This document shows positions 4,502 to 22,652 of a stretch of 24,000 nt of DNA, piece by piece (the stretch's first letter is position 1; each line of letters opens with the position of its first letter). Made by a program: the position numbers and the translations under genes. The notes beneath the pieces were generated by a model. It was not told the DNA's origin and made no database searches. It worked only from the letters and a program-made list of their open reading frames with translations. The stretch is from Laceyella sacchari (lineage in GTDB: Bacteria; Bacillota; Bacilli; Thermoactinomycetales; Thermoactinomycetaceae): NCBI RefSeq assembly GCF_004343255.1, contig NZ_SMDD01000003.1, positions 373,038-397,037 on the forward strand. The letters run 5' to 3'.

Positions 4502-4587
4502 CGGATTTCTCCTTCCTTTCACTTTGGCGCAGGGGGCGTCACTTTTGGCAACCCCTTATACGCGTGATGCATCCTAATATGCTTAGT

Positions 4588-5712: not shown

Positions 5713-6864
5713 TTATAATTCAATCCCACCAATGAAGTCGACAAACACTTCATTGCCAAAAATCAATCCTTTTTCCGTTAAACGGTAGCGATCTCCGCTC
5801 CGCTCAAGCAATCCTTTGTTCATCAGTGGTGTCAGAACCTGGCCAAATGCTCGCTCCAACTCCATCCCGTACAAGCGCGCAAACTTCTCCCGGCTCACTC
5901 CTTCCATCAACCGTAAGCCCAAGATCATGAAATTCTCCATCTCTTCCTCGCGAGTCACTTGATAACTCTCTTGGATGGGAAGTTGGTTGTCCTGCAACCG
6001 TTGAATATATTCTTTGACACCTTTGATATTGGCGTGGCGCCGTTTAAGCACATAGCCGTGCGCGCCTGTTCCCAGGCCGTAATACTCTTCATTCAGCCAA
6101 TAAGTCCGATTGTGGCGGCTTTCATAGCCTGGTTTGGCAAAGTTGCTCACTTCATACTGCGCATACCCTTGTTCGGCCAAATAGGAGCGGGTCAATTGGT
6201 ACATGGCCAACTCCGCATCCTCCGATGGCAACGGCAGCTCTTTGCGCTCTTGTAAATGATGGAACAATGTCCCTTCTTCCACTTTTAAGCTGTAGCAAGA
6301 AAAGTGTTCTGGCGCCAATGCGACCGCTTCTTTGAGTGTTGTTTCCATGTCATCGACGGTCTGCGTTGGCAAACCAAACATCAAATCGAGCGACAGATTA
6401 TTATAGCCGGCCTGCCGTGCCAACTCCACGCCGCGTTTAATCTCTTCCACCCCATGGACCCGGCCGATTCGTTCCAGCAAATCCGGACGGAACGTTTGCG
6501 CACCAAAGCTGATCCGGTTAATCCCGCCTTCTCTCATCACCCGAAGCAATTCAGGGCTGGTTGTTCCCGGATTGGCTTCAATGGTAAATTCGATGTTTTC
6601 ATCCCAGTTGGGAAAATGGCGCCGGACACTTGCCAAAAGGCGCTCCATCTGTTTGGGCGTCAACACCGTTGGCGTCCCTCCGCCGATGAAGATGGACCGG
6701 ATAATTCCCGGAGGGGTGTTGGCCACTGTCAGGGCCATCTCTTTATCCAGTGCGGACACATAATCGTCCACAGGTTGTCCTCCCACAGCATAGGCTGTGA
6801 AATCGCAGTAATGGCACTTGTGCGTGCAAAACGGGACATGTATATAGACGGCTTGGGGAGCCAT
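5713..6864 (-). CDS. hemW: Radical SAM heme chaperone HemW (coproporphyrinogen III oxidase-like, HemN/YqeR family)
   Basis: 383-aa ORF with the radical-SAM motif CTHKCHYCDF near the N-terminus (VYIHVPFCTHKCHYCDF) and FIGGGTP. Its position between lepA and hrcA matches B. subtilis. An AAGGAGG SD is present. Confidence 0.9.
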   Translation of the reverse strand: MAPQAVYIHVPFCTHKCHYCDFTAYAVGGQPVDDYVSALDKEMALTVANTPPGIIRSIFIGGGTPTVLTPKQMERLLASVRRHFPNWDENIEFTIEANPGTTSPELLRVMREGGINRISFGAQTFRPDLLERIGRVHGVEEIKRGVELARQAGYNNLSLDLMFGLPTQTVDDMETTLKEAVALAPEHFSCYSLKVEEGTLFHHLQERKELPLPSEDAELAMYQLTRSYLAEQGYAQYEVSNFAKPGYESRHNRTYWLNEEYYGLGTGAHGYVLKRRHANIKGVKEYIQRLQDNQLPIQESYQVTREEEMENFMILGLRLMEGVSREKFARLYGMELERAFGQVLTPLMNKGLLERSGDRYRLTEKGLIFGNEVFVDFIGGIEL

Positions 6865-10552: not shown

Positions 10553-10933
10553 TCAACTCACATGCGAAGCAACGTTATCCATGGTCACCGCCCCGTGCAA
10601 GGCGCAGTTTAATCCGTTTGCCAACAGCTTGGCCATGTTACCGATGAAAGAATCCACTTCTTTTGGGGTGACGATCAGATTTTGCCCGAGCGGTGACAAC
10701 ACCTCGTGAATCAGTTGCCGCTTGTCTTCGGGATCAAGCGATCCAAACATCCCCATCATGCGCGTCTGCGTTTCCGGCGGTACTTGGTAGTTTTGCAAGT
10801 CCCGCACACTCGGCCGGTTATGCGGGTCCAGCGGATTGCCGCGCACCCCATGCATTTCCCGTCCCAAATGGGACAATACATAATCGATCGTGTCATGGGC
10901 GATGGTCACTGCATCAACTACCGTAGGAACTCC
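10553..10933 (-). CDS. gpr: Germination protease Gpr, 3' segment (about the last 121 codons plus core), detached from its 5' segment by the insertion
   Basis: The in-situ ORF is 10553..10978, but its first 13 codons (MLMPAQIHTGKIM) are element DNA. From GVPTV onward it reads [22 protein letters not shown]...[44 protein letters not shown]. This matches the Gpr C-terminus as I recall it from B. subtilis (VDAVTIASDTVDYILKHFGREM...[44 protein letters not shown]). Confidence 0.9.
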   Translation of the reverse strand, partial: [126 protein letters not shown]

Positions 10934-12689
10934 TACTGCCATTATTTTGCCGGTATGAATCTGTGCCGGCATGAGCAAACGCCGCAGCCGTTTCTCGTGC
11001 GCAACTCACCGCCTCAAAAAACTTGACCACATCAAAGTGAATCGCTACCTCTATCGTCTCCTCGCGGACCGTAACATAATCCACAATGCTCCCCAACATT
11101 TGTCTTTTTTCTTCCGTGGTGGCTTGGTCAAACAGCGCTCCCCAATCCAACAACAGATCTTGCAACTTGAGCACGTCAATCTCTGAAAGCCCATTGGCAT
11201 CTTTCAGTGCCTTCATCTCTTCATACAGCCTTTGCGCGCTTTCCAACTCTTTTACAGCTTTCTCATACAACTCCTTAAGCTGGGCTTCAGAAAAAGGGGA
11301 TTCCTCACCCATCAAAATCTTCAACAGATGGTTATTGGCGTTTTCTTTTGCCCTTTGCCATTGCTCCATGTCTTGCTTCGACTGTGCTAGCTTCTCTTCA
11401 ATCTCCTTGGAGGCGTTTAAAGTCTGTTTTTGAATCTCCACCAACACATTGGAGTTTACCATTTCCTTCAGATATTCTTTTACTTTCTCAATCACCGCAG
11501 ACTCGATCTTCTCCGCCCTGTGTGAACCTTTCTTTGCTCCGCATGCCTGAACCCCTGCTTTAAGCCTTTTCAGGCACCTGTAAATGCCATACAATTCGCC
11601 TCTTTTGGTTCTCTTATGGTCAAGCCAGTCCCTCCGGCTGCCATAAGTCATGCTGCTCCCACATTCACAAGTTAACACACCCACGAGCAGGCCTTTGCCC
11701 GTTCCTTTTCTGACGGGAGTGTTACCACCAAAATGTGACGCGACATCTACCCGGGCTTTTTTCATTTTCTGTGCTCTCTCCCACACCTCGGCAGGAACAA
11801 TCTCATACTCTGCCCAGTACCGCTCGGATACAAGCTCTTCTCCTTCTTTGGTGTACTTTTGATAGGAACCAAACTCTCCTTCTACTTTTTTGGTTTTTCC
11901 ATAGGATAAATACCCCTTGTAAATGGTGTTGCGGAGAATTTTACGAATCCCTTCTGCTTTCCACTCTCTGCCGGTTCTCGTTTTTAACCCTTTTTCGTTT
12001 AAAATACCCGCGATTTTTAACATGCCATACCCTTCAGAGGTGTAAAGCCGATATATTTCTTTCACCACTTCCGCCTCTTTGGGATTGATCTGCAACATAT
12101 TGGACATTTCAGGATGATTGATATAGCCATAGGGTGGGTTGCCCCCAGTCCAAAACCCTTCCTTGTGAATCAATTTCATCATGTCAGTAACACGCACTTT
12201 GGTGTCCATGGACGCTTTCTTGGCTGACCAAAACTCAATGAAGTTTAAAATCTCATCCGCATCTCCGTTATTGGTAAACTCCCTGTCCTTGTCCACGACC
12301 CATATGCGGCAATGCCGCAGAAACCGGATAGCATGGTTTAAACTTTCGGTAGATCGTCTGCCGATTCGGTCCAGCTTGTACACCAACAAAATGTCATACA
12401 AGCCTTTTTTGGCATCCTCAAACGCCCGATTTAAACCCGTTCTCTTGCTGACATGTGTGTGAAACCCAGACACACCCGCCTCCACATACTCCAGCCCTGT
12501 AAATATCCAATCGGGCTTATTTGCGATATATTCCATGCATTTCTCTTTTTGCAGGGGCAGATCATTCTCATCTGAAATGGGTCTGGCGGACATTTTCCCA
12601 GTCCTGGAAGCTGCTTTCTTTTTCCCCTGGCTAGTTTGCTTGTTCGTACTCGCCCTCATAAACAAAGCAACTCGTAGCTTTTCCCCCAT
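10914..12689 (-). CDS. Large serine recombinase (site-specific integrase/excisionase of the gpr element)
   Basis: 591 aa. The resolvase-type catalytic domain has VALFMRASTNKQ (candidate nucleophile Ser) and ILLVYKLDRIGRR. The recombinase domain has GGNPPYGY. A Cys-rich zinc-ribbon region reads CECGSSM...YRCLKRLKAGVQACG. A long coiled-coil follows (EEKLAQSKQDMEQWQRAKENANNHLLKIL...). An AAAGGAG SD is present. The ORF 3' end crosses the attL core and stops in host gpr DNA. Confidence 0.92.
   Translation of the reverse strand: MGEKLRVALFMRASTNKQTSQGKKKAASRTGKMSARPISDENDLPLQKEKCMEYIANKPDWIFTGLEYVEAGVSGFHTHVSKRTGLNRAFEDAKKGLYDILLVYKLDRIGRRSTESLNHAIRFLRHCRIWVVDKDREFTNNGDADEILNFIEFWSAKKASMDTKVRVTDMMKLIHKEGFWTGGNPPYGYINHPEMSNMLQINPKEAEVVKEIYRLYTSEGYGMLKIAGILNEKGLKTRTGREWKAEGIRKILRNTIYKGYLSYGKTKKVEGEFGSYQKYTKEGEELVSERYWAEYEIVPAEVWERAQKMKKARVDVASHFGGNTPVRKGTGKGLLVGVLTCECGSSMTYGSRRDWLDHKRTKRGELYGIYRCLKRLKAGVQACGAKKGSHRAEKIESAVIEKVKEYLKEMVNSNVLVEIQKQTLNASKEIEEKLAQSKQDMEQWQRAKENANNHLLKILMGEESPFSEAQLKELYEKAVKELESAQRLYEEMKALKDANGLSEIDVLKLQDLLLDWGALFDQATTEEKRQMLGSIVDYVTVREETIEVAIHFDVVKFFEAVSCARETAAAFAHAGTDSYRQNNGSRSSYGS
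10926..10933. repeat. attL core octamer GGAACTCC (left junction of the insertion)
   Basis: This is the exact point where Gpr-coding sequence gives way to unrelated DNA. An identical octamer sits at the right junction (21814..21821). The crossover dinucleotide cannot be resolved within the 8 bp. Confidence 0.75.
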
Positions 12690-12783
12690 TCTGTCTATCT
12701 CCTTTTCTATCCTACTGTCATATTATTGCTGGTATTATACATCGATTGAGAACACGGGCGCAAACAAAGAAAAAAGGAGAGAT

Positions 12784-12948
12784 TTAATCTTCTCCCCTTT
12801 CCAGCTGATTTTTCGCCTTCTGGCTGTAATACCTGGAAGCGACCTGGATAAAAACTTTTTGGAAATCATCCACCCTGCGCTCAATCTCAACAGATGACAA
12901 CTTGTTCTTTGCATGGACTATTCTAATGTTGTAATCAGTCATGGTCAT
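12784..12948 (-). CDS. 54-aa hypothetical protein upstream of the recombinase (candidate recombination directionality factor or regulator)
   Basis: Below the ORF-track size cutoff and found by hand translation: MTMTDYNIRIVHAKNKLSSVEIERRVDDFQKVFIQVASRYYSQKAKNQLERGED. A GGAAAGGG SD lies about 6 nt upstream of the ATG at 12948. It is on the same strand as the recombinase and ends 94 nt upstream of the recombinase start. I recognise no family. Confidence 0.4.
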   Translation of the reverse strand: MTMTDYNIRIVHAKNKLSSVEIERRVDDFQKVFIQVASRYYSQKAKNQLERGED

Positions 12949-13041
12949 GTCAGCCCTTTCCACTTCTGATCAACATTATTTCCTATCCAGACGATAGCCA
13001 TTCCATAGGGCTGATAGACATGAGAAGCAAAGCAGAAAACG

Positions 13042-13069
13042 ATTATGAAGCTACTGGCCTATTTATCAA
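13042..13069 (-). promoter_or_regulatory. Candidate sigmaA-type promoter for the small ORF and recombinase unit
   Basis: The minus strand has TTGATA (complement of 13064..13069), a 16-nt spacer, then CATAAT (complement of 13042..13047). It lies about 95 nt upstream of the 54-aa ORF. A second perfect TATAAT lies between the small ORF and the recombinase (minus strand, about 12730). No convincing sporulation-sigma consensus was seen by eye. Confidence 0.3.
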
Positions 13070-13075
13070 CGCTCC

Positions 13076-13092
13076 AGTAAAATCTAATGGAT
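13076..13092 (+). repeat. Direct repeat copy A: AGTAAAATCTAATGGAT
   Basis: 17/17 identity with 15247..15263. Similarity continues imperfectly (ATTTAT upstream, then CTGGAGGC and ATTTA downstream) in both copies. Copy A overlaps the 3' end of the 105-aa minus-strand ORF. Confidence 0.85.
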
Positions 13093-13100
13093 TATTATAT

Positions 13101-13418
13101 CTACTCACTGGAGGCTGCACCATTTAAGAAATCCTCATGCCTCTGCTTTTGAAGCGTGTACAGTAGTTCCATCCTTTGTTCATACTCTCCATGAACATCT
13201 ACTCTGAAGACATCTTCGATTCTTCTTATGATATAACCATCATTTGTGCCCTCAGGAGTTACATGTTTCATAACAAACTGCTCATCGGAGATCGCATCTA
13301 TAAATCCAGCAGAGAAATTTCCCGGCTGATTCCGATCGGAATAAACAGAAACAATCATCCCTTTATAAAGCGAACGCTTTAAAGCTTCAAGTATACGGCT
13401 TTCTCCCATTTGTCTCAT
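13101..13418 (-). CDS. Hypothetical soluble protein, about 102-105 aa (possible small beta-barrel or immunity-type protein)
   Basis: ORF MRQMGESRILEALKRSLYKGMIVSVYSDRNQPGNFSAGFIDAISDEQFVMKHVTPEGTNDGYIIRRIEDVFRVDV... The likely start is the ATG at 13409, with AAGGGG 9 nt upstream. It has no hydrophobic segments. Its last codons lie in the CTGGAGGC part of repeat copy A, so the 3' end may be recombinant or truncated. Confidence 0.55.
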   Translation of the reverse strand: MRQMGESRILEALKRSLYKGMIVSVYSDRNQPGNFSAGFIDAISDEQFVMKHVTPEGTNDGYIIRRIEDVFRVDVHGEYEQRMELLYTLQKQRHEDFLNGAASSE

Positions 13419-13641
13419 CCCCTTGTTTAGTGTTAATAAACAAATGAATGATTTTTTTCAATCTAGATACACCTACTATTTCGCAAATAATAACCATGGA
13501 ACTTAACAAAATTCCTCCCACAAATAAAAATAAATAAAGCATAGCAATAGCATAACGATGTTCGGAGATCGTTTTCATCATGTCCATAAACATATCAACT
13601 AACATCGATGTAAAAATCGGAATCTCTAAACAAAGTCGCAT
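13387..13641 (-). CDS. Hypothetical small membrane protein (84 aa)
   Basis: An open frame in about 25-30% G+C DNA, where stop codons are frequent by chance. It has a hydrophobic core (AIAMLYLFLFVGGILLSSMVIICEIVGV) and overlaps both neighbours. No clear SD is present, so it may be a fragment. Confidence 0.35.
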   Translation of the reverse strand: MRLCLEIPIFTSMLVDMFMDMMKTISEHRYAIAMLYLFLFVGGILLSSMVIICEIVGVSRLKKIIHLFINTKQGDETNGRKPYT

Positions 13642-13882
13642 AAACGAGCTCTTGCGTTAATATAATGACCACAATTGCAAGTGCTACTTCCAACATGGTA
13701 TTCTCTTCTCCTCTTTCATCCATTTCATGCAGGATAAATTCTTCCTCCACACCTAACAAATCGGGCTTAAGCCCTTGATCACCTTTATTTACGTCTATAG
13801 GGAATATCCCGCTCTTCATTCCCCTTCCTATAATGAAAAGGAATATACTCAAAGAGCATATCCCTTTTTGCATGAGCATCAA
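13595..13882 (-). CDS. Hypothetical small membrane protein (about 94 aa)
   Basis: It has two hydrophobic segments (ICSLSIFLFIIG; LEVALAIVVIILTQ) separated by an acidic loop. The ATG at 13879 overlaps the upstream stop as TGATG, a translational-coupling pattern. No SD is present. An alternative internal start (MKSGIF) is preceded by GGAAGGGGA. Confidence 0.35.
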   Translation of the reverse strand: MMLMQKGICSLSIFLFIIGRGMKSGIFPIDVNKGDQGLKPDLLGVEEEFILHEMDERGEENTMLEVALAIVVIILTQELVYATLFRDSDFYIDVS

Positions 13883-14163
13883 TATGAAATAGGCATATAT
13901 TTATACGCCAAAACACTAAGCACACAGTCGAATATAAAAAAACCTAAAAACAACTTTTTGTTCCTCGATAAATAATCCTTTTTATTCTGTGAAAATAAAA
14001 ATTTAACCAGATACGGTACCCATGGAACAACCCAAACAAACCCTACTTGTAATAACGACTTTAGCTCATCATGAACATAATCCGTTAAAATAAATAATAA
14101 TCCTGCTACTAGCACACATCCTATTGCACTTACATTTACTTCTATTTTTTCTTTTCTACTCAT
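13879..14163 (-). CDS. Hypothetical small membrane protein (94 aa)
   Basis: A GGGAG SD lies 9 nt upstream of the ATG at 14163. There are three hydrophobic segments (AIGCVLVAGLLFIL; VGFVWVVPWVPYLVKFLF; LFLGFFIFDCVLSVLAY). It overlaps the upstream ORF by 8 nt (ATGAGTAG). Confidence 0.5.
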   Translation of the reverse strand: MSRKEKIEVNVSAIGCVLVAGLLFILTDYVHDELKSLLQVGFVWVVPWVPYLVKFLFSQNKKDYLSRNKKLFLGFFIFDCVLSVLAYKYMPISY

Positions 14164-14401
14164 TTTCTTTTTCTCCCTTAGTCGTTGACTCCAAATACTC
14201 TGCAGTTAAAAATACGAAAATAATTATATAAATAAAACATAAAGGATAATAATCTACAAACCTTCTATAGATCGTCCCTTTTAGTTTAACGTTTACCTTC
14301 CACTTATGTTCAAGCCAAACAATATTTATCCCATTAATCAAGCATAAAAGTAACGCATATTCGATACTATTAAAATATATACACAACAAAACAAATGACA
14401 T
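14156..14401 (-). CDS. Hypothetical small membrane protein (81 aa)
   Basis: It has hydrophobic segments (FVLLCIYF...ALLLCLINGINIV; YYPLCFIYIIIFVFLTA) and an acidic tail. No recognisable SD is present. It is retained because a long open frame in very AT-rich DNA is unlikely by chance. Confidence 0.4.
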   Translation of the reverse strand: MSFVLLCIYFNSIEYALLLCLINGINIVWLEHKWKVNVKLKGTIYRRFVDYYPLCFIYIIIFVFLTAEYLESTTKGEKENE

Positions 14402-14500
14402 GAAAATATAATTAATAAAAAAGAAACAGAATTACCTTTCGGTAGTTATCATTAAACTTCTCTTTCAGTTCATTGATCATCGTCTTAAATCCCCTTTGTT

Positions 14501-14538
14501 TAATAAGGTGGCAAGTACTGTACCATACCACCTTATTA
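14501..14538. repeat. Perfect 11-bp inverted repeat TAATAAGGTGG-N16-CCACCTTATTA
   Basis: Arms are at 14501..14511 and 14528..14538. It lies in the 217-nt gap between the TPR gene and the small-membrane-protein ORFs. No flanking T-run is present on either strand, so it is not a canonical terminator. Confidence 0.8.
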
Positions 14539-14618
14539 AAAGGCATTCAATTTTACTTTGACGCCCGATGGAGCTGCACAATCATGGGACGTTCAACAAG
14601 ACACCCATTACACATTTT

Positions 14619-15188
14619 TCATCCTTGGCCTTCAAATAACTGCGGATATTTCTTTCTCAGTCTTTGATATCTTCGTTTAGATAAAGAATGTCTCATACAA
14701 TATTGATAAACCTCATTTGCTTTGTCATTCATCCCTTTTTGCAAATATGCCTTGATAACTTTGATAAATTGATCTTTCACCTTTATCCCTTCCGCCTGAA
14801 TCAAAATAGGATAGGCTTTATCAAAATAACCGATGGCCTGATCTATTTCCCCCTTATCATAATAAAGCCTTCCTATATTGTAATTTAATACTGCCCGCTC
14901 CAACTCATGTACATCCCGTTGCAAACCCGCCTGCAATATTTGAATGGCTAATTTCTTATTTCGAAGAAGAAACTCATAATTATGGGATCGTTCTAAGATA
15001 TCATTGAAAGTACGAATTTTTTTGAAAAAACATCGATAAATAAGCCAAGTAATTATTAAAACACCGATAAATAAACGGATCCAGTCCAATGATATAACCT
15101 CCATTGCCGGCAAAACAAGCGGGTAGATTGAAGGAAAAAAATGAGACAGGCATAAATCCTTAAAATGCACCTTTATTTTATAATTCAA
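14619..15188 (-). CDS. Membrane-anchored TPR-repeat protein
   Basis: The maximal ORF has a TTG start at 15188 with no SD. A better start is the TTG at 15089, preceded by GGAGG (complement of 15098..15102) with 8-nt spacing, giving about 156 aa. The protein then begins DWIRLFIGVLIITWLIYRCFF (a TM anchor). TPR-like helices follow (AVLNYNIGRLYYDKGEIDQAIGYFDKAYPI...KVIKAYLQKGMNDKANEVYQYC) and the tail is basic. Confidence 0.65.
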   Translation of the reverse strand: MNYKIKVHFKDLCLSHFFPSIYPLVLPAMEVISLDWIRLFIGVLIITWLIYRCFFKKIRTFNDILERSHNYEFLLRNKKLAIQILQAGLQRDVHELERAVLNYNIGRLYYDKGEIDQAIGYFDKAYPILIQAEGIKVKDQFIKVIKAYLQKGMNDKANEVYQYCMRHSLSKRRYQRLRKKYPQLFEGQG

Positions 15189-15246
15189 TTTACTAAATTA
15201 ACAAGAATAGTATATTCCGATTTTGTTGCAGAATTTATTTTATATT

Positions 15247-15263
15247 AGTAAAATCTAATGGAT
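15247..15263 (+). repeat. Direct repeat copy B: AGTAAAATCTAATGGAT
   Basis: Identical to 13076..13092. Here it overlaps a plausible promoter (TTGCAG 15226..15231, 17-nt spacer, TAAAAT 15249..15254). It is followed by the CTGGAGGC SD of the 108-aa gene. Confidence 0.85.
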
Positions 15264-15299
15264 AATGATTAAGCACCTAATAGCTGGAGGCAATTTACA

Positions 15300-15626
15300 A
15301 TGAAAGATGTGTGTTTCTGTGATGAAACCTTTGAAATACTTGTTGAAGCAGAAGTATCTGCTGATCCGATTTGGTGTAATAAATGTAAAGCAAACTTAGA
15401 TCTTGATGAACTTCCAATATCAGAAGAACTAAAAGCAGAACTATATGAATGGAACAGTACTTTTAGTAACCATCTAGCATCTCATAATTACAACGGAATA
15501 ACACAATCTTTTTCAGAATGGTTAAATGCAAGTGGTGAAAACTTAACAAAAAAATTAAGCGCAGAACTAACTAACACATATGTAATCCAATATCATCCTT
15601 ACGAATCAATTATTAAAGAAAAATAG
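15300..15626 (+). CDS. Hypothetical 108-aa protein with N-terminal CxC...CxxC (zinc-ribbon-like) motif; candidate immunity protein
   Basis: ATG start with a GGAGG SD (15286..15290) at 9-nt spacing. Cysteines lie at residues 5, 7, 26 and 29 (DVCFCDETF...PIWCNKCKANL), followed by a helical acidic region. It is the only plus-strand gene in the element and converges on the 3' end of the RHS toxin gene. Confidence 0.7.
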   Translation: MKDVCFCDETFEILVEAEVSADPIWCNKCKANLDLDELPISEELKAELYEWNSTFSNHLASHNYNGITQSFSEWLNASGENLTKKLSAELTNTYVIQYHPYESIIKEK

Positions 15627-15688
15627 AAAAACTAATCACATTAACATATCCACACAATCTAGTGTTTTTTACCTGTAGCTTAGCACGA

Positions 15689-15725
15689 TAAAAAAATCCC
15701 CTTGATCGTTAATACGTTCAAGGGG
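15689..15725 (-). terminator. Rho-independent terminator immediately after the RHS toxin gene (hairpin shared with the convergent gene)
   Basis: The minus strand reads CCCCTTGA-12 nt loop-TCAAGGGG (8-bp perfect stem, 15698..15705 / 15718..15725) followed by ATTTTTTT. It starts 27 nt after the RHS stop codon. Confidence 0.7.
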
Positions 15726-15751
15726 TCATTTCTAGATAGGCAGAAGCTACA

Positions 15752-18700
15752 TTATTTCCAACGGCTTTTGGGTTTAGGTTGACGGTAACAAGTTGTTAAC
15801 GTACTCCCTTTTCTACAAACCGCTATACCCTTACGCCAATAAACAATCGATTTTTCTTTTGGATCATAATATTTCTTTCCGTATTTTACAGTATTAGCAA
15901 TTTCTCTTGGACCAATCTTCCTTTGATATGCTCTTTGACCCAAATGCTTGGAAACACGCAGCGATACCCCTAACCATCGTAAAATCTGAGTTGCCGCCCG
16001 AATAATCCATGGAATAAGGGGATTCTTTCCGTTTGAATCGACCAAATTGATTGGATTATTATAGGCGTAAGTATATTTATTCAGACTAAACGGATCATTT
16101 TCCGTCCCCTCAAATGTATCCCTCGTCAAAAATCTTCCCGTCTCTGGATTATAGTACCTGCTTTGCAAGTAATACAATCCCGTTTCCTTGTCATACCGAT
16201 AACCGGCATAGGTATAGGGATTTTCAACCGTACCCGTTTGGTTGGCGAGGGTACCAAATGCATCATAGGTATAAGTGTTTACAACAGCACCTGTTTGATC
16301 CGTGAGTGCTACCACATCCCCATGCCCGTTCAACTGATAGAAATACGTCTTTCCACCACGGGACATGCTAACAGGTTCATTCTCTGGACCATAGGTGTAG
16401 CTCGCTACAATCGCTCCACTTTGATCTGTTTCATACGCCACATTGTTGTTTTGATCATAATGGAACGTAATGGTACCCGATGCCGTCGTTTTCGTCCTCC
16501 GCATGCCATCCGCACGGTAGGTGAACGAAGCGATCGTATTACCTGCGCTGTCTTTGACTGCGGTCAATCGGTTCTCCGCGTCATAGACATACGTCTTGTT
16601 GCCATCGCTTAGCAAATTGCCGATAGCGTCGTAGGTATAGGTTGTGCCGTTGACGGAAGTAAGCTGATCTGCATCATCATAAGCATAAGTGGTAGTCGTC
16701 GCCGTTCCGTTTGGGGACGTTACTTTTTTGGTCAGACGATTACCCACAGCATCATAGGTGTATTCATAAGTCGTGCCATCTGGACGAGTTTCTTTGGTCA
16801 ATTGATCCAGTTCATCGTACACATACGAGGTCGTGCCCGCTTTGGACGTGACCGATGTAATATTTCCTTTGTTATCGTAAGTATAGGTAAAGCTGTCAAT
16901 CTGGTTTCCGTTTTTGTCAAAAATGTCACGTGCTATCAAATCTCCCGCACCATTATACCGGTTGAAGGTCATGTTGCCGTCAGCCGTTTTACGGCGAGCC
17001 ACTTGGTCTTGCTCGTTATAGTTGAACCATGCTTGGTTGGTACCATTGGATGTGATTTTGGTTAGTTGATTGTTCCCATTATACCCATAGCCTTGTGTAA
17101 TCTCTGTAGATCCAGCGGACAGCTTTTGTTGGGTGATGTTTCCATTGGCATCATAGGTATAATCCGTTAGATTGCCATTTGGCTCTTTCACTTGTTTCAG
17201 GCGGTTGTCAGCATCATAAGCATAATCAGTCGAAATGCCGCTAGCCACATCGGTTTCATTAGTGACGTTGTTGTTGGCATCATAGTTAAAAGTGTATGTT
17301 TGCGTACCATTGTAGGAAATAGCATCTTTTCGGTTGACACTGTCGTAGCTGTACGAAACAATGTTACCGTTCGGATAAGTGATCTTGGTTTGATTTCCAT
17401 TCAGATCGTAGTCATACGTTGTCGTTTTGTTATTAGCGTCGGTAACACTTTTTATTTGATTTAATTCGTTGTAGGTATAGGTCGTTTCCTTGTTTTTGGC
17501 GTTGATGACCTTGGTTTTGTTGCCCGCCGCATCGTATTGGTATTCGGTGGTGTGATTTTTCGCATCAGTCACCTTGGTCAGGCGATCCAGCGCATCGTAA
17601 GTGAACTGCGTCGTGTCCAATCCAACCTTTTCACTGGTCGTGTTGCCAACCGTATCATAAGTGCGTTGTGTGACCCGTTGCTCAGGATCGGTAGTTGACG
17701 TTTCATAGTTGTTGTTGCTGTCATAGCCATGGTAGGTGGTAATGGCATCTGGTACCACTTTGGCGGTATCAAACCAAGCTGTTCCCGTTTGATTGCTGTA
17801 CTCATAGTACACCCTGATTCGATCGAAGGATTTGGTCGTTTTTATCTCGCTGGCAATATGTTGCCAATCGTGAGACTTTGAGCGATCAAAGTTAAATGTA
17901 AACTTCTCCACTACATCAGTTCCCACACTGGAATCATAGGTATTGATAATGTATCCGTAAATGCCATTTGGGTTCGGATTTTCCGTTTTGGAAAAGCCGG
18001 ATACAGTTAAGATCGAACCCGCTCCACCCTTTAAGTTGACATCTTGGTACACCGTTTTGTATTTTGCCGAATCCCCAACCAGCTTCACTGAACGTGCACC
18101 ACTATATGTTTCTGTGGTATCTAGGCCGTCCCCTGCCGCTGTGTCTCCTTGCAAATACCAGCGATCTGGAATATTGTCGCCAGCGGGATCGAGATCCCGT
18201 TCAAAGTCGCTGTTTTCCAATACGTTATAGGCACCGTAATGCCCTTCTTCGATTTGCAAGCCATCAAACCAGTACGTTCCACCATATTGACCATTGATTC
18301 CGCTGATATACCCGCGTATTTGCAACTGGTCATATCCTGTCAATGTTCCCGGATCGAGAGACAAGTGGATACGGGTTGCTTCTTGCGTACCTGTAATGCC
18401 GGCACCCGCGATAGCTGTGGACGCTCCAGTTTTAGAGTTGAACGCAAACGCATAGATGCTACCTCGTCCCTGGGCACCACTCGTTTTTACATATCCACTC
18501 AGTACATAGGTTTTATTGGGATCATAAGCAACTTTATCACTGGCAATGGCCGTAGCCCCAGAGACATTGGAAATTTTGATGCTTTTATTCCCCAAAGTGA
18601 TACCATCAGTTGTAAGGCCCGTGCTATCCCAAGAGATATCAACTGATCCACTCGGCACTTTGCTCCAATTGTCCGGCCAATTATCACTGTTGCGATCCAA

Positions 18701-21382
18701 TTCAAAACTTCCATTGATAGCCAAATTGTTGCCTGGGCTCATCGCCGATGTTTCGGACAAGACGTTGCCATAGGCATTGTATTTGGTCGCAGTTGATTTT
18801 TCGACTGGGTCAGTGGAAGCCGTCAAATTATTTTTGTCATCATATTCATTGGTTGTGGTGTTACCGTTGGCATCCGTTTCCGTCACCGGATTGTTCTTGC
18901 TGTCATAAGTGGTGCTGCTCGTGTTGTTGAGCGGCGTACTAATGCTGGTTAGATTTCCTTTCTCATCATACGAATAATTGTAAGTGGCCGTGCCGTTGGC
19001 GGCGTTGGCGTTTCCGTCTTTTTGGCTGATCAATTGGTTTTTGTCGTCATATTCAAACGTGTTCTTAATATTGAATCCAGTCGGATCTTCCGTCGATTGG
19101 ATCACGTTTCCATACGCGTTATGAGTATAAATCGTTTTCGTTCCTTTTGGATCAGTGACAGTGGTGGTGTTGTTGACTGCATCATAACTAAATGTTGTTT
19201 TCGCCGTTTGTTTCGCACCATTCACTGTGATGGGATAAGAAACAGCATTCACCCGGTCACTGTCCGTATCATAACTGATTGTTTTCGTATGATTGTTTGG
19301 ATCGGTGATCGATATCAAATTGTGGTTATCATCATAGCCATATGCCTCTGTTGACACCACCGAACCTGTTGCATCCTTGTGTGTGATGCCAGTCAAATTG
19401 CCGTTCGCGTCATAGGTGTACTCCACTGAGCGGTTCGCTGGATCAGTCACTTTGCTGACTCGGTTGTTGGTATCATAAGCCAGTGTGATTTGTCTACCTG
19501 ACGCATCAGTAATGGATGTGGGCAGGTTATCGGTATAAGCGATCGTTGTCGTGTTATTGTTACTATCAACAATCGAGGCCAACTTTTTGGCTGAGTTAAA
19601 ATTGTATTTTGTCTGATCCGATGTGATCAGGGTAAAGGTACCGTTACTGTTTTTCACTAATTCCAAGTTGACTCCATCAGGCGCTTTATACGTACCCGTT
19701 GATACTCCGCCCGATCCATATTCCGGTATAAACGTATGTGTGGTGCCATCGGCATCAGTATAAGCGACAGGACCATCGGAATCCATGGATAGACTTTGTT
19801 CTAGATTGGAAATCCAACCATAGCCAAAAATACCACTTTTGTTTGAACGGCTGTTATAAGCTCGTTCCACTGACAAACTTGGACCGCGACCATTGATACT
19901 GACATCCGTATCTTGCAAATAATAGTTACCGTTATAAGTATTCACATTAGAGGCAGCCGTCGTCCAGAAACTTTCTACACCTATCGGATCAATGGTATAA
20001 GTAATGGTCAGCTTGGGCTTTTGCGAGTTGTTTGGATCAGGGTCGAGATAGTCACTGGAACGGAATCCTTTTCGGTTATTGCTTTCCGAATTCAGGCGTA
20101 ACATCACACCATAGTTGGAGCTGGTGCCTGCATACCATTGTTTTGTTAGTGAAGTGATATCAAAATCATAAGCTCCCACAGCTCCAACCGATTTCGTGGA
20201 GATAGGTGTTGTACCAGATGACGGTTGGTTGCTTCCCTTGATATCAGTTGAGTTCCAATCCGAGGTGACTGGATAAACATTGACTTGCTCTGCATGAGTG
20301 GTTGCGTATTGATGCAATGTAAGCGTCGCTGAAGAAATATTAGCCCCACTCAATAATGGAGATAATGCGAACTTGAGATACGAACGATATTCTCCCGTAC
20401 CATAAGTCGGATCAGTATAGGTTCCTGTGAGCAAATATGAAGAAGTGCCAAAGTTAACATTTTTACCATTAGTGGAATTTGTGACTGTGGCATCGTATGT
20501 CTTAAGTGCACCTTGCACCGAAACAGATGGATCGATCACTACTGGATATGCCCGCTTTTCATCCTTTAACCAAGCGGTATCCACTTTCAAATCTATAAAT
20601 GTTTGGTTTTTCTCCTTACGCAATTCATACCGGGCACCAAAGGACTGTTCGTCATTGGCATCCACCATGAAAGGTCGAGGAATGGCGAACACCGTGTTAC
20701 CCTTGTTGTCCAAAAATGAAAGGGAACCGTCTTTCTCTTGTTTGACATCCACATTTTTCGTTTTTAAAGATAATGTATAAGTAGACTGTCCAGTATATTT
20801 TTGCAACACCCAGGCTTCTTTAAAACCTGTATTGGTGACATAATAGCTCAGATCCGTATATGGATAAACCGAGGGATATGTCACTTTGTTCTTATCTTTT
20901 TTCGCAGCTACATTGGCACCATCAACCAACCCGAAATCGATGTGGGCTTGTCCCAATTGCAAACGAACAACTTTCTTGCCCCGGCTACGTGGAGCAAACC
21001 CCACTTGAAATTGGTTTCCTCCATTTGCGAGGGAAAGTTCAGCATCATCTGCGGCGGCCGCTTTTTTGAATTTGACTTCTTTTATCTCTTTTATCTCGTT
21101 ATCAATTTCTACCCATTTATCTCCCTTTTTATAGTGAATAGGTTCCAAATATTCTTCCAAAGTATATGTCTTTTTGTCTGGAGATATATAAGTTTTGGAA
21201 GTGGCAGTCCGCATGTGTTCCAATTCAACTGGCTTGGGTGCGGGAGCAGCCAATACATCAAATGTTGCTTGTGGCCAGAGAGTGAAGATCAATGTCAATG
21301 CAATGGTAATCGATACAATGCTACGAATTCGCGCGTATCGTTCAGCATAAAAAAATTGCAAACATATCCCTTCTTTCTTCAC
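15752..21382 (-). CDS. Secreted RHS/YD-repeat polymorphic toxin (WapA-like), 1876 aa
   Basis: The track start is a GTG at 21382 with no SD. The likelier start is the TTG at 21361, preceded by GAAGGG. A signal peptide is present (RYARIRSIVSITIALTLIFTLWPQATFDVLA/AP). Dozens of YD repeats occur (YTYDANGNLT, YAYDADNRL, YTYDAVGNRL, and others). The RHS core end reads YAGYRYDKETGLYYLQSRYYNPETGRFLTRDTF...NKYTYAYNNPINLVDSNG. A short variable C-terminal domain follows. Confidence 0.95.
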   Translation of the reverse strand: MKKEGICLQFFYAERYARIRSIVSITIALTLIFTLWPQATFDVLAAPAPKPVELEHMRTATSKTYISPDKKTYTLEEYLEPIHYKKGDKWVEIDNEIKEIKEVKFKKAAAADDAELSLANGGNQFQVGFAPRSRGKKVVRLQLGQAHIDFGLVDGANVAAKKDKNKVTYPSVYPYTDLSYYVTNTGFKEAWVLQKYTGQSTYTLSLKTKNVDVKQEKDGSLSFLDNKGNTVFAIPRPFMVDANDEQSFGARYELRKEKNQTFIDLKVDTAWLKDEKRAYPVVIDPSVSVQGALKTYDATVTNSTNGKNVNFGTSSYLLTGTYTDPTYGTGEYRSYLKFALSPLLSGANISSATLTLHQYATTHAEQVNVYPVTSDWNSTDIKGSNQPSSGTTPISTKSVGAVGAYDFDITSLTKQWYAGTSSNYGVMLRLNSESNNRKGFRSSDYLDPDPNNSQKPKLTITYTIDPIGVESFWTTAASNVNTYNGNYYLQDTDVSINGRGPSLSVERAYNSRSNKSGIFGYGWISNLEQSLSMDSDGPVAYTDADGTTHTFIPEYGSGGVSTGTYKAPDGVNLELVKNSNGTFTLITSDQTKYNFNSAKKLASIVDSNNNTTTIAYTDNLPTSITDASGRQITLAYDTNNRVSKVTDPANRSVEYTYDANGNLTGITHKDATGSVVSTEAYGYDDNHNLISITDPNNHTKTISYDTDSDRVNAVSYPITVNGAKQTAKTTFSYDAVNNTTTVTDPKGTKTIYTHNAYGNVIQSTEDPTGFNIKNTFEYDDKNQLISQKDGNANAANGTATYNYSYDEKGNLTSISTPLNNTSSTTYDSKNNPVTETDANGNTTTNEYDDKNNLTASTDPVEKSTATKYNAYGNVLSETSAMSPGNNLAINGSFELDRNSDNWPDNWSKVPSGSVDISWDSTGLTTDGITLGNKSIKISNVSGATAIASDKVAYDPNKTYVLSGYVKTSGAQGRGSIYAFAFNSKTGASTAIAGAGITGTQEATRIHLSLDPGTLTGYDQLQIRGYISGINGQYGGTYWFDGLQIEEGHYGAYNVLENSDFERDLDPAGDNIPDRWYLQGDTAAGDGLDTTETYSGARSVKLVGDSAKYKTVYQDVNLKGGAGSILTVSGFSKTENPNPNGIYGYIINTYDSSVGTDVVEKFTFNFDRSKSHDWQHIASEIKTTKSFDRIRVYYEYSNQTGTAWFDTAKVVPDAITTYHGYDSNNNYETSTTDPEQRVTQRTYDTVGNTTSEKVGLDTTQFTYDALDRLTKVTDAKNHTTEYQYDAAGNKTKVINAKNKETTYTYNELNQIKSVTDANNKTTTYDYDLNGNQTKITYPNGNIVSYSYDSVNRKDAISYNGTQTYTFNYDANNNVTNETDVASGISTDYAYDADNRLKQVKEPNGNLTDYTYDANGNITQQKLSAGSTEITQGYGYNGNNQLTKITSNGTNQAWFNYNEQDQVARRKTADGNMTFNRYNGAGDLIARDIFDKNGNQIDSFTYTYDNKGNITSVTSKAGTTSYVYDELDQLTKETRPDGTTYEYTYDAVGNRLTKKVTSPNGTATTTTYAYDDADQLTSVNGTTYTYDAIGNLLSDGNKTYVYDAENRLTAVKDSAGNTIASFTYRADGMRRTKTTASGTITFHYDQNNNVAYETDQSGAIVASYTYGPENEPVSMSRGGKTYFYQLNGHGDVVALTDQTGAVVNTYTYDAFGTLANQTGTVENPYTYAGYRYDKETGLYYLQSRYYNPETGRFLTRDTFEGTENDPFSLNKYTYAYNNPINLVDSNGKNPLIPWIIRAATQILRWLGVSLRVSKHLGQRAYQRKIGPREIANTVKYGKKYYDPKEKSIVYWRKGIAVCRKGSTLTTCYRQPKPKSRWK
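15755..16018 (-). other. C-terminal toxin tip of the RHS protein (88 aa), DUF4258 / RelE-ParE-superfamily-like putative RNase
   Basis: The sequence after the RHS core boundary (…NPINLVDSNGKNP) is LIPWIIRAATQILRWLGVSLRVSKHLGQRAYQRKIGPREIANTVKYGKKYYDPKEKSIVYWRKGIAVCRKGSTLTTCYRQPKPKSRWK. The H-x3-R-x3-R-x-I signature (HLGQRAYQRKI), followed by a short beta-rich segment ending ...TTCY, matches my recollection of the DUF4258 toxin fold. This is unverified. Confidence 0.5.
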
Positions 21383-21496
21383 ATGCTAGTTGTTTCGTGA
21401 CACAAAATAGTCACAACCACAATATATAATTTAATAAGTTATAAATAATAAATCAATTATTTTTATCTATCTTTTAATTTATTTTTTTATAAACAG

Positions 21497-21524
21497 ATTA
21501 TATATTTTATCCTATTTTAAGCAA
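21497..21524 (-). promoter_or_regulatory. Candidate sigmaA promoter of the RHS toxin gene
   Basis: The minus strand has TTGCTT (complement of 21519..21524), a 16-nt spacer, then TATAAT (complement of 21497..21502). It lies in a very AT-rich leader, and many alternative hexamers exist there. Confidence 0.25.
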
Positions 21525-21563
21525 TTTATACTCTATTATGTAAAAGTACCATCAAAACGATTT

Positions 21564-21596
21564 GAAAAAATAAAGCCCGGCACCTCCTTGCCAGGC
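21564..21596 (-). terminator. Rho-independent terminator just inside the right end of the element (would stop read-through from the gpr promoter)
   Basis: The minus strand reads GCCTGGCA-aggagg-TGCCGGGC (8-bp stem, 1 mismatch; 21575..21582 / 21589..21596) followed by TTTATTTTTTC. Confidence 0.55.
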
Positions 21597-21638
21597 CCAT
21601 AATCAATAAAAGACTTATCAGTTTTAAGTTTTTCATCT

Positions 21639-21647
21639 TGATATAAT
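21639..21647 (+). promoter_or_regulatory. Outward-facing extended -10 element (TGaTATAAT) near the right end of the element
   Basis: The plus strand has a cTTGATATAATg match to TGnTATAAT, about 170 nt from attR and pointing out of the element, antisense to the gpr 5' segment. No good -35 is present. Confidence 0.3.
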
Positions 21648-21813
21648 GCATTTATATGATGTCAAAGTAAACTGTCACTAGTTTTTAAAATCCCTCTGAC
21701 TGAACAACTCAACCAACTTTTATTAACACCTGTTTTTTGATGGGAACAGGAAACGTCCTAGCAATCCTTTTGAATAAATGGATCGTTTCCATACCAGCAA
21801 TATTATAACTGTC

Positions 21814-21821
21814 GGAACTCC
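21814..21821. repeat. attR core octamer GGAACTCC (right junction of the insertion)
   Basis: Identical to 10926..10933. On the minus strand the gpr reading frame runs ...GCG ATT GGA GTT CC| and then diverges into element sequence. Confidence 0.75.
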
Positions 21822-22547
21822 AATCGCAATCACCGGTACACCCAGTGTTTCTTTGGTGAGTGCTTTGCGCTTGTTGCCCACCCCTGAGCCAGGATGTATA
21901 CCGGTGTCAGCTACTTGGATGGTGGTGTTCACGCGGCTGAGCGCTCTTGACGCCAATGAATCAAAGGCGATGACGAAGTCCGGTTTCGTCTTTTCCACCA
22001 CGCCGCGCACGATCTCGCTCGTCTCGATCCCCGTGATGCCCAGCACGCCCGGCGAGAGTGCGCTGATCGGCCGATACCCTTCAGCGACAGATTCTGGCGC
22101 CAGCTCAAACAGGTGGCGGGTGACGAGGGTGTGTTTGACCACAAGCGGCCCGAGGGCATCAGCCGTGACATTCCAGTTGCCGAGGCCGACGATCAGGCCG
22201 GAGTCGTCAAGGCCAATGCCAACCTCATCCAAAAAACGGCTGAATTGCTGGGCAAAGTGTTCACTTACGCGCTTTTCCAGCATGGAATCTCTGCTTCTCA
22301 GTGCCGGCACTTCCAACGTCAGATAAGTGCCAGGCACTTTGCCGATCGCTTCACTGCCCGCTTGGTCATCGATCCAGATCCAGCTGGTGGTGATGCCTTC
22401 TTCGGTGTTCTCTTCAATCCGTACGCCGGGGATGTCGCTTGTGCCCCCCCGCTCATCTACCGCCATCTGATGCGCTTCCCGTGCAAGGTCTGTGCGGATG
22501 GAGTAGCCAGACAAATCGATTTGGTGTTCAGTGCGCTCTGCGTTCAT
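21814..22547 (-). CDS. gpr: Germination protease Gpr, 5' segment (about the first 247 codons); in situ the frame runs on into the element to a stop at 21723
   Basis: The track ORF is 21723..22604. The likely true start is the ATG at 22547, preceded by GGGGAGGAAG. Gpr motifs present: [126 protein letters not shown]. After these come 27 unrelated element-encoded codons ([27 protein letters not shown]). Confidence 0.9.
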
Positions 22548-22623
22548 GAATGAATCTTCCTCCCCGTTGCATCCATGGGTGGATGCCACCTTTGTTCGGG
22601 ACACCTCCCCGACAATCCGCTAA

Positions 22624-22652
22624 TAGTTTGCTTTTTGTTGATTTATTTATTC
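22624..22652 (-). promoter_or_regulatory. Candidate forespore (sigmaG/sigmaF-type) promoter of gpr
   Basis: The minus strand has GAATAA (complement of 22647..22652), a 16-nt spacer, then CAAACTA (complement of 22624..22630). Compare the sigmaG consensus as I recall it (GnATAa, 17-18 nt, CATnnTA). The match is imperfect and the spacer is one short. Confidence 0.25.

Follow-up and report, generated by a model that had tools for sequence, protein, structure and literature searches.

A serine recombinase island splits the spore protease gene gpr of Laceyella sacchari and may be excised reversibly in the forespore

Results

An island interrupts gpr

The window, a 24,000-nucleotide stretch of the L. 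sacchari genome, holds gpr in two segments separated by a 10,888-bp insert (10926..21813), with breakpoints at 21814..21821 and 10926..10933; the octamer GGAACTCC is present in exactly two copies in the window, one at each breakpoint. The minus-strand ORF 22604..21723 encodes the start of Gpr followed by 27 unrelated codons, since in the integrated state the 5´ segment runs on out of frame into the element as far as a stop at 21723. The Gpr reading is picked up again in ORF 10978..10553 and continues to the Gpr C-terminus. The insert is a non-phage island encoding a large serine recombinase (LSR), a conserved ORF of ~54 aa, an Rhs toxin and small ORFs, and no transfer, replication or phage genes were found in it. 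The features, listed in the gpr reading direction, are:

22624..22652, minus strand: gpr promoter-like motif, forespore sigmaF/G-like type, GAATAA-N17-CAAACTA
21814..22547, minus strand: gpr 5´ segment, Gpr residues 1 to ~245, core included (tblastn and HMM colinearity)
21814..21821, unstranded: attL core, GGAGTTCC on the gpr strand; central GT at 21818-21817, the putative crossover dinucleotide
21791..21816, plus strand: P´ arm, recombinase half-site of attP, by half-site match
21709..21813, minus strand: detached recombinase C-terminal exon, continuous with the recombinase body in the attP form alone (622 aa)
15752..21382, minus strand: Rhs/YD-repeat polymorphic toxin, 1876 aa, cargo; RHS_repeat (311 bits) and DUF6531, variable C-terminus
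13101..15626, unstranded: small ORFs downstream of the Rhs gene, cargo; a TPR-like 189-aa ORF, a 108-aa ORF (plus strand) and several small hydrophobic ORFs
12974..13004, minus strand: small-ORF promoter-like motif, forespore sigmaF/G-like type, GGAATGG-N16-GGAAATAATG
12784..12948, minus strand: conserved 54-aa ORF, candidate recombination directionality factor, MTMTDYNIRIVHAKNKL...FQKVFIQVASRYY...
12771..12802, minus strand: terminator-like hairpin and T-run between the small ORF and the recombinase
12710..12735, minus strand: third recombinase half-site, putative operator, 21/26 identical to the P arm, overlapping a TATAAT box
10914..12689, minus strand: LSR, integrated (shortened) form, 591 aa; Resolvase, Recombinase and Zn_ribbon_recom domains
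10931..10956, minus strand: P arm, recombinase half-site of attP, inside the 3´ end of the recombinase gene
10926..10933, unstranded: attR core, GGAGTTCC on the gpr strand; central GT at 10930-10929
10553..10925, minus strand: gpr 3´ segment, Gpr residues ~246-368 and stop

The Rhs toxin is 94% identical to those of L001 and L009 over 1809 aa and divergent beyond; the small ORFs downstream are probably immunity or orphan modules, position alone suggesting immunity.

Joining 734 nt (22547..21814) to 373 nt (10925..10553) gives 1107 nt, or 368 codons plus a stop. The 368-aa protein obtained by joining at the GGAGTTCC core matched Gpr models from end to end, covering positions 2-351 of 353 in Pfam Peptidase_A25 (479.7 bits) and 1-306 of 306 in TIGR01441 GPR (404 bits, cut-off 120). 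It is colinear with the intact 368-aa Gpr of Laceyella putida (L011; 88% identity), and after joining both halves read through in all five genomes where they could be joined (the window, three Shimazuella species and Paenactinomyces). The first-pass annotation had described gpr as interrupted at a shared octamer and as restored in frame by excision at the core, and its coordinates and counts all proved correct. It had also called for uninterrupted, colinear gpr alleles, which we found in L. putida and in Shimazuella alba-like sequences (L023-25), the latter breaking exactly at the core and thus providing the exact empty site of a sister element in conspecifics of its carriers.

Integration also detaches the end of the recombinase gene

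The island's own LSR carried out the insertion, through attP x attB recombination at the central GT of GGA-GT-TCC, the Gpr codons G-V-P. Crossover is confined to the GT, as the attL and attR cores of L006 and L013 differ on either side of it. The earlier proposal of a precise, site-specific insertion with an 8-bp core and attP arms mimicking the host codons stands. The same annotation placed the recombinase against attL; a recombinase does adjoin a junction, but this junction borders the 3´ gpr segment and so is attR in the gpr reading direction. Three half-site matches were found in the window versus 0.00 expected, and the TATAAT box overlapped by the third lies 46 nt upstream of the recombinase start.

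Since attP, an imperfect dyad of ~55 bp, falls within the 3´ end of the recombinase gene, a placement that the first-pass annotation had overlooked, integration both splits gpr and strips a conserved C-terminal exon of ~31 codons from the recombinase, leaving the recombinase stop codon inside gpr sequence, 10 nt beyond the attR core. The reverse reaction restores both genes, gpr and the full-length recombinase. In the tail exon the LSR frame is the only frame open and conserved across genera (pS 0.70-0.86 versus pN 0.13-0.15), and ~31 of 73 LSR clusters carry a tail that only the attP form can encode.

The attP form is present in public data. The metagenome contig L019 has the attP junction and the full-length 622-aa LSR ORF, and over 6,965 bp it matches the integrated copy of L017 at 99.74% identity; this circle junction, predicted by the first-pass annotation, differs by one strain SNP. 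A contig of Shimazuella type, L020, also has the attP form. The integrated form was found in five of five cultured isolates.

The recombinase belongs to a widespread gpr-targeting family

The LSR falls in a discrete clade of ~75 clusters with identities of 38-99%, below which identity drops to 27%. Every clade member checked is at the same Gpr codons (GVP|TVV), with hosts in Thermoactinomycetaceae, Clostridia and Paenibacillus, and two are intact attP on phage contigs. In eight of eight genome loci the LSR (62-98% identity) adjoins a gpr fragment at GVPTVV, and the target is the same for L013 (60%) and for a Paenibacillus prophage (L012, 38%). This widespread gpr-targeting recombinase family was not part of the first-pass annotation. 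Similarity to CcrB, CcrC and XisF in NCBIfam is weak; the XisF match (E 2.5e-15) is well below the cut-off, and membership of that family was rejected.

Several properties of the family would fit an ordinary island or prophage remnant whose integrase happens to use a highly conserved coding stretch of gpr as attB, leaving carriers without Gpr, a state tolerated since outgrowth is merely slowed, and excising sporadically or for transfer, unlinked to sporulation. Members ride on real phages (L012, L014 and L021), and the cargo is typical of islands (Rhs toxin, Fic, a rifampicin-phosphotransferase-like gene and ABC-ATPase defence-like genes). The element is polymorphic, present or absent, within S. 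alba, and the 3´ gpr segment has decayed in one Clostridia MAG (L015), indicating that carriers can lose gpr. We consider this explanation less likely than not, given the following.

Both gpr halves are under purifying selection

Comparison of the L. sacchari window with L. tengchongensis gave dS values of 0.128 (LSR) and 0.165 (Rhs), close to the 0.116-0.148 of host genes, indicating from sequence divergence that the island co-diverges with Laceyella. Over the same divergence both gpr halves are open with omega 0.016-0.08, and omega is 0.02-0.05 in a Shimazuella trio, values that denote strong purifying selection on both halves, although the polymorphism in S. alba means that low dN/dS in Shimazuella could reflect recent or repeated gain. 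Such constraint on a split gene, the read-through in every joinable genome and the absence of transfer, replication or phage genes from the Laceyella island all argue against an ordinary island, as does a promoter motif shared between gpr and the small ORF.

The 54-aa ORF (dN/dS 0.2-0.4), which the first-pass annotation had not singled out as conserved, immediately precedes the recombinase gene in all loci with a recombinase identity of 59% or more. It is a candidate directionality factor, but it matched no Pfam or PHROG family and showed no similarity to any known factor of this kind. A relaxed promoter motif, GAATRR-N16/17-nAhAmTA, was defined after the sequences had been viewed. In the window the gpr promoter is its only match; in L002, L003, L004 and L006, where the motif likewise precedes gpr, it matches only the gpr and small-ORF promoters (two per locus versus 0.3-0.5 expected). 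The position of the small-ORF motif is kept in all Thermoactinomycetaceae loci. The strict B. subtilis pattern gave no matches, and the C that marks the -10 box of Bacillus sigmaG promoters is missing from the motif. The small ORF of Laceyella is preceded by a sigmaA-like promoter as well. The gpr genes of B. subtilis and C. difficile are genuine sigmaF targets (PMC3789822).

Discussion

The architecture is skin-like, as the first-pass annotation had it. As in skin/SpoIVCA, SPbeta/spsM, vfbin/spoVFB and vrin/spoVR, an element lies inside the coding sequence of a sporulation gene, with an LSR at one end beside the 3´ gene segment, a short common core at both junctions and a frame rebuilt by excision. 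The recombinase is retained whereas cargo is exchanged freely (bioRxiv 10.1101/2022.02.25.481979). The gin element in gerE of Bacillus cereus ATCC 10987 (GirC and GirX) is likewise an intervening element of non-phage type, and both a serine recombinase and a small accessory factor are needed to rearrange it (PMC5595907); gin has three recombinases and a mother-cell regulator as target, whereas the present element has a single recombinase, its small ORF is of another family and its target is a forespore gene. SprA of SPbeta, the closest solved structure, is only distantly related to the recombinase (E 1e-10), and the SPbeta attP lies between sprA and sprB (PMC8270828) rather than inside the recombinase ORF. 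In cyanobacteria the serine recombinase XisF excises the heterocyst-specific fdxN element and so frees a gene that the differentiated cell requires, as proposed here, but heterocysts are terminal cells. In the SSV1-type integrases of Sulfolobus viruses attP also lies inside the integrase gene, and integration partitions the integrase ORF; those are tyrosine recombinases of archaeal viruses with the gene split far from its end, whereas here a C-terminal tail of ~31 codons is detached from a serine recombinase.

All known skin-type elements interrupt genes of the mother cell, and their excision is restricted to that cell (PMC4191935). In contrast, gpr is a forespore (sigmaF/G) gene, a point absent from the first-pass annotation, and the mother-cell logic of skin cannot apply. 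Since Gpr works in the future spore and not in the disposable mother cell, repair would need excision and re-insertion of heritable DNA. We suggest that a promoter of forespore type (sigmaF/G-like), like that of gpr, drives the small ORF. In the forespore, recombinase and directionality factor would then recombine attL x attR, rebuilding gpr for synthesis of the Gpr zymogen; the dormant spore would hold the island as a non-replicating circle encoding the full-length recombinase, which probably controls its own promoter via the third half-site. During outgrowth, recombinase alone would return the island to gpr, as the general properties of serine integrases would allow. The timing and cell of excision, and the reintegration, are what we infer from these features.

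The closest functional precedent is Listeria phi10403S/A118 in comK, a serine-integrase element that excises reversibly in a cell that reproduces, restoring the gene, and reintegrates without lysis. Such active lysogeny has reportedly been reviewed by Feiner et al. in 2015, a paper cited in PMC10747680. The comK element is a full prophage triggered by intracellular growth, and its reintegration is experimentally supported, whereas here we deduce it. In Paenactinomyces guangxiensis the attL and attR sites are inverted (two of three Paenactinomyces assemblies with this recombinase, the third being grouped as similarly placed), such that recombination would flip rather than excise; the 4.2-kb segment concerned would be turned over, with the element staying permanently in the chromosome.

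We regard this forespore cycle of excision and reintegration as the best explanation, with about an even chance of being correct. Against it, an island excised in the germline is at risk of loss. In addition, spores carrying attB might be expected to yield intact Laceyella-type gpr alleles, and none (>88% identity) was found among 5.8 billion proteins.

Classical skin-type behavior, in which the terminally differentiated mother cell alone excises the element while the spore retains the integrated copy, is improbable. All experimentally studied elements (sigK, spsM, spoVFB, spoVR, gerE and yabG) act so (PMC4191935; PMC10747680), and stable vertical inheritance would require no reintegration step. 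However, Gpr is made and active in the forespore (sigmaF/G regulon), so mother-cell repair could not provide it and selection on the split gene would be left unexplained. The small-ORF motif also resembles the gpr promoter, with a spacing unlike that of the sigmaE and sigmaK consensus sequences.

We give still less weight to separately translated gpr pieces assembling into an active protease with no DNA rearrangement. The N-terminal piece appears to span the motifs that we take to hold both catalytic aspartates, and in the window, L003, L004 and L006 an in-frame ATG from the P arm immediately precedes GVPTVV. No such start is present in L001 (98% identical recombinase), L002, L005 or L007, no ribosome-binding site was evident on reading the junction sequences, and the 27-codon tail of the N-terminal piece shows no conservation between genera. 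That the split is an artefact of assembly or chimerism, a concern of the first-pass annotation, is effectively refuted, as the identical split is found in independent assemblies (L001, L009, L010, L017 and L018) and the same junctions recur in other genera as well as in six or more Laceyella assemblies or metagenome contigs of independent origin.

In the literature searched, a skin-like element in a forespore gene is without precedent. If the forespore cycle is correct, repair of gpr would be a reversible rearrangement of inherited DNA.

An island splits gpr and its removal in silico rebuilds the protease

The minus-strand ORF 22604..21723 begins with Gpr sequence and ends in 27 unrelated codons, and Gpr resumes in the ORF 10978..10553, which continues to the Gpr C-terminus. 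The core GGAACTCC occurs only twice in the window, at 10926..10933 (attR, the junction with the 3´ gpr segment) and at 21814..21821 (attL, the junction with the 5´ segment). Joining 22547..21814 to 10925..10553 in silico yields 1107 nt, equivalent to 368 codons and a stop. The joined product matches Pfam Peptidase_A25 (PF03418; model positions 2-351 of 353, 479.7 bits) and is a full-length equivalog match to TIGR01441 (positions 1-306 of 306, 404.2 bits, cut-off 120), which identifies it as the Gpr germination protease (MEROPS A25). It has the same length as the intact Gpr of Laceyella putida, with 88% identity. Coordinates, counts and HMM matches all bear out the first-pass annotation, which had proposed a split gpr with the core at both breakpoints and a rebuilt 368-codon frame. 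The possibility that the two gpr pieces work as a split protein was rejected, as the in-frame start codon is not conserved.

The gene order at the locus (trpS, rpsT, gpr, spoIIP, lepA, hemW, hrcA, grpE, dnaK) is the usual firmicute neighbourhood and is uninterrupted in L. putida, where a colinear, intact gpr is found (L011, 4001-5107). The empty site (attB) of L. putida, GGTGTGCC, has G+C-rich wobble positions along its arms; it may be a poor target, which could explain the uninterrupted gene. A separate feature of the neighbourhood is a 519-aa thermosome-like (group II/archaeal-type) chaperonin encoded at 2963..4522 (minus strand) between hrcA and grpE in the dnaK operon, with thermosome alpha and beta as best NCBIfam matches, both below the cut-offs. 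The same chaperonin gene (PF00118) also follows hrcA in the Laceyella locus L017 and in L023, an S. alba-like contig with an empty site.

The island carries a recombinase, a small ORF and variable cargo

Main features of the island
10926..21813, insert, 10,888 bp
12689..10914, minus strand, large serine recombinase (LSR), 591 aa, with Resolvase, Recombinase and Zn-ribbon domains
12948..12784, minus strand, small ORF, 54 aa
21382..15752, minus strand, Rhs/YD toxin, 1876 aa

Further small ORFs are present, and G+C content is 0.29-0.47 inside the insert versus about 0.50-0.55 outside. No phage structural, lysis or replication genes were found in the window cargo, for which Pfam gives only Rhs and TPR domains. 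The Rhs protein has an RHS_repeat match (311 bits) and DUF6531, a C-terminus that varies among strains, and only a weak DUF4258 match (E 0.09) in its C-terminal toxin domain; the gene that follows is, by its position, a putative immunity gene. Compared with the Laceyella loci L001 (218-5962), L009 (11143-16905) and L017, the window Rhs is 94% identical over about 1809 aa and then has a different C-terminus (window 15752..16300, minus strand), with total lengths of 1876 aa versus 1914 aa. A 108-aa ORF (window 15300..15626, plus strand) adjoins Rhs in the window and the small ORF in L001, the neighbouring ORFs being reshuffled. These rearrangements resemble the usual swapping of toxin tips and immunity genes.

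What the genera share is limited to the small ORF, the LSR and the att arms; the cargo is wholly different, Rhs being found in Laceyella and, in other genera, Fic, a PPDK_N/PEP-utilizer enzyme and an ABC-ATPase, among others. Shimazuella-type islands (L002 6358-8988, minus strand, and 5521-6258, plus strand; attP contig L020 3048-3782) encode a PPDK_N and PEP-utilizer protein of rifampicin-phosphotransferase-like architecture together with a Fic protein (SoFic/PDC-S04-like), whose gene is seen again in S. soli, S. kribbensis and L020. In the Clostridia contig L013, the cargo includes an AAA_14/DUF4143 ATPase gene (4948-6393; PADLOC candidate PDC-S01), and in a second Clostridia locus (L015 487-3854) an AAA_14/DUF4143 gene lies between the recombinase and a gpr remnant comprising only the last ~70 codons.

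The recombinase belongs to a gpr-targeting family

The LSR scores above the cut-offs for PF00239, PF07508 and PF13408, as expected of a large serine recombinase, and its R-A-S-T-N-K-Q motif (residues 12-18) is invariant in the family alignment. The rebuilt junction of the excised element (attP) is CATACCgGCAAaATaATggCaGTaGGA-GT-TCCgACaGttATaATatTGCtGGTATG, an imperfect dyad with a non-palindromic GT centre, in which P and P´ arms match at 19 of 26 positions around GGA-GT-TCC. Since the attL and attR cores of the Paenactinomyces locus L006 and of L013 differ on both sides of GT, exchange is confined to this dinucleotide, where crossover would be expected for a serine integrase.

A genome scan with the LSR gave eight loci: L. 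tengchongensis (98% identity), Paenactinomyces guangxiensis (82%), three Shimazuella species (77-81%), Thermoactinomyces sp. DSM 45892 (75%) and two Clostridia MAGs (62%). The LSR adjoins a gpr fragment that starts or ends at GVPTVV in all eight, and the same junction is found in L013 (60% LSR relative) and in a Paenibacillus chitinolyticus prophage (L012, 38%). Intact attP sites are present on two phage contigs, L014 (LSR 49% identity, core GGAGTTCC) and L021 (64%), and these, with L012, place distant family members on phages. In a collection of 5.8 billion proteins, the family forms a discrete clade of about 75 clusters with 38-99% identity, the next sequences being at 27%. No close relatives were found in GenBank phages (≤27% identity) or in a first IMG/VR scan, and an alignment-based IMG/VR scan gave one family member (L026); given these results, the Laceyella island is not recognisable as a prophage.

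Both products of excision are found

The attP junction predicted by the first-pass annotation was sought in metagenome contigs and recovered in a single match, L019 (7,479 bp), with the order Rhs 3´ part, cargo, small ORF, 622-aa LSR, attP and left end of the element. Aligned with L017, it shows 99.74% identity to the integrated copy over 6,965 bp and 100% identity to the attL side over 528 bp; these two alignments share 14 nt at the core. A second contig, L020, has a Shimazuella-type attP and no gpr sequence. For the reciprocal product, there is an intact 363-aa Gpr (P0054) that is 99.7% identical to the in silico joined S. alba gene; the contigs that carry it (L023-25) align with the S. alba flanks at 97-99% identity, with breakpoints precisely at the 8-bp core, and provide, with L. 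putida, the colinear uninterrupted alleles that the insertion predicts. Both attP and attB are therefore documented, although not from one culture. The attP contigs L019-L022 showed no overlap between their ends; the attP junction itself points to an excised circle. We regard the insertion and its anatomy, the family to which it belongs and its ability to excise as firmly established.

Integration detaches a C-terminal tail from the recombinase

In the integrated form, the LSR ORF stops 10 nt beyond the attR core. When attP is intact, the ORF runs about 31 codons longer, into tail codons located at the attL end (21813..21709). The tail is the sole open frame at that end across genera, with a conserved L(L/F)(Q/K)KIARTFPxP(I/F)(K/R)K motif encoded by synonymously differing DNA. 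In the LSR frame, pS is 0.70-0.86 versus pN of 0.13-0.15 (Shimazuella and Paenactinomyces pairs only, excluding the window), and the pattern is reversed in the other frames. Conservation of a frame that is joined at attP indicates that the LSR is truncated by integration and made whole again by excision. Of 73 LSR clusters in public data, about 31 carry the tail and must therefore have been in the attP form when sequenced; the integrated form is found in all five cultured isolates.

One LSR subclade (562-572 aa) ends short of the att-encoded residues. Another protein, P0125, is encoded on a contig (JGI 3300056388) with the order YkuD (minus), DUF3679 (minus), spoIIP (minus), a 419-bp gap too small for gpr, and a full-length tail-bearing recombinase (plus), possibly a further attP configuration that has been rearranged or fixed in the chromosome.

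Orientation varies among genera

In Thermoactinomyces sp. DSM 45892 (L008), where Gpr reads GIP, the core is palindromic (GGAATTCC, with an AT centre) and the element has the opposite orientation, which fits a role of the central dinucleotide in setting polarity. P. guangxiensis has the rpsT-gprN-attL block turned around with respect to LSR-attR-gprC, an arrangement seen in two of the three Paenactinomyces assemblies with the LSR (the third was grouped as having a similar place; not shown). Recombination between attL and attR would here produce a 4.2-kb inversion with no release of DNA, and would rebuild both gpr with its native upstream region and the full-length LSR. Just upstream of trpS in L006 (1920-4975) are genes for a 791-aa NACHT/AAA_16 protein with Sel1 repeats and a 223-aa Sel1-repeat protein, possibly a STAND-type defence locus beside the rearranged gpr region.

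The small ORF has a promoter-like motif in common with gpr

By position, size and conservation, the small ORF is a candidate recombination directionality factor. It has no family in Pfam or PHROGs, and no similarity to a described directionality-factor family; only three homologues, all near-identical, were found among the 5.8 billion proteins. AlphaFold predicts a two-helix hairpin (pLDDT 82, 4-sequence alignment), a fold too generic for a structure search or for use as evidence.

Upstream of the small ORF in every Thermoactinomycetaceae locus, we found TGAATAA, a 16-17 nt spacer and (G)nAnAnTA. A relaxed form of the pattern matched only the gpr promoter and the small-ORF site in L002, L003, L004 and L006, giving two matches per locus versus 0.3-0.5 expected (about 20 kb, both strands) for a motif defined post hoc, the only kind by which these two promoters stand out from background. 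In the window, it matched the gpr promoter alone, as the last base of the site before the small ORF is G in Laceyella. Among clostridial loci, the motif is present in L013 and L007 and absent from L005. The strict B. subtilis σG pattern GHATR-N17/18-CATNHTA gave no relevant match. In B. subtilis and C. difficile, gpr is a σF target, and a G directly upstream of the -10 box is found in σF/G promoters (PMC3789822). The motif common to gpr and the small ORF suggests that excision may be triggered in sporulation.

A terminator-like hairpin lies 3´ of the small ORF. Between it and the LSR start, a third half-site (12710..12735; 21 of 26 positions matching the P arm) overlaps a TATAAT box, and its conservation across the LSR family suggests LSR autoregulation. 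In Laceyella loci only, a σA-like promoter (13042..13069, minus strand; TTGATA-16-CATAAT, 10 of 12 matches) precedes the small ORF by about 95 nt. The pairing of σA-like and forespore-like promoters recalls the dual control of SPβ sprB.

Both gpr halves are under purifying selection

Synonymous divergence (dS), window versus L. tengchongensis
LSR, 0.128
Rhs, 0.165
spoIIP, 0.133
lepA, 0.116
hemW, 0.148

Given that dS is comparable for island and host genes, the island is as old as the split between the window lineage and L. tengchongensis. At comparable divergence, ω was 0.016 for the 3´ gpr segment, and it was 0.08 for the 5´ segment (versus L009). For both halves in three Shimazuella species, pN was 0.06-0.07 versus pS of 0.69-0.73, a case weakened by presence/absence polymorphism of the element in S. 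alba. The main rival explanation, which we consider somewhat improbable, is that a plain island has knocked out gpr. A gpr that is never reassembled should have decayed, and decay does occur, in one MAG (L015); joining gives an open frame in each of the five genomes that supply both halves.

Discussion

As in skin-like elements, the coding sequence of a sporulation gene is interrupted and precise excision, by in silico joining, restores the frame. Described intervening elements reside in the mother-cell genes sigK, spsM, spoVFB, spoVR, gerE and yabG, and excise in the mother cell only, so that they are kept in the spore genome (PMC4191935, PMC5595907, PMC10747680). The gpr element works like skin, SPβ and gin but differs in its host gene, which belongs to the forespore σF/G line (PMC3789822). 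Searches of freely accessible full texts turned up neither an intervening element in gpr nor excision in the forespore, with or without reintegration. Functionally, the closest precedent for a germline switch that can be reversed is active lysogeny at Listeria comK.

We tentatively propose a programmed germline DNA rearrangement. In the forespore, the LSR and the 54-aa factor, expressed from a σF/G-type promoter, would cut the island from gpr; the island would pass dormancy as a circle and be re-inserted at outgrowth. Attachment of the LSR C-terminal exon only upon excision would constitute a built-in switch between excision- and integration-competent forms, and in Paenactinomyces this chemistry would have become a chromosomal inversion switch. 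Taken jointly, forespore timing, the small-ORF role and reintegration seem to us evenly balanced between right and wrong; the full programme is possible, short of probable.

In practical terms, the system offers a compact, orthogonal serine-integrase module with an attB conserved across endospore-formers, and the two natural C-terminal forms of the LSR, which track integration state, bear on the control of serine-integrase directionality. Mother-cell placement explains how excising elements are inherited, and an element in a forespore gene breaks that rule. A conserved, selected, excising element in such a gene forces one of three conclusions: that excision occurs in the germline and is followed by reintegration, or is replaced by inversion; that Gpr is made by a so-far unknown route; or that a protease thought to be universal among spore-formers is routinely lost.
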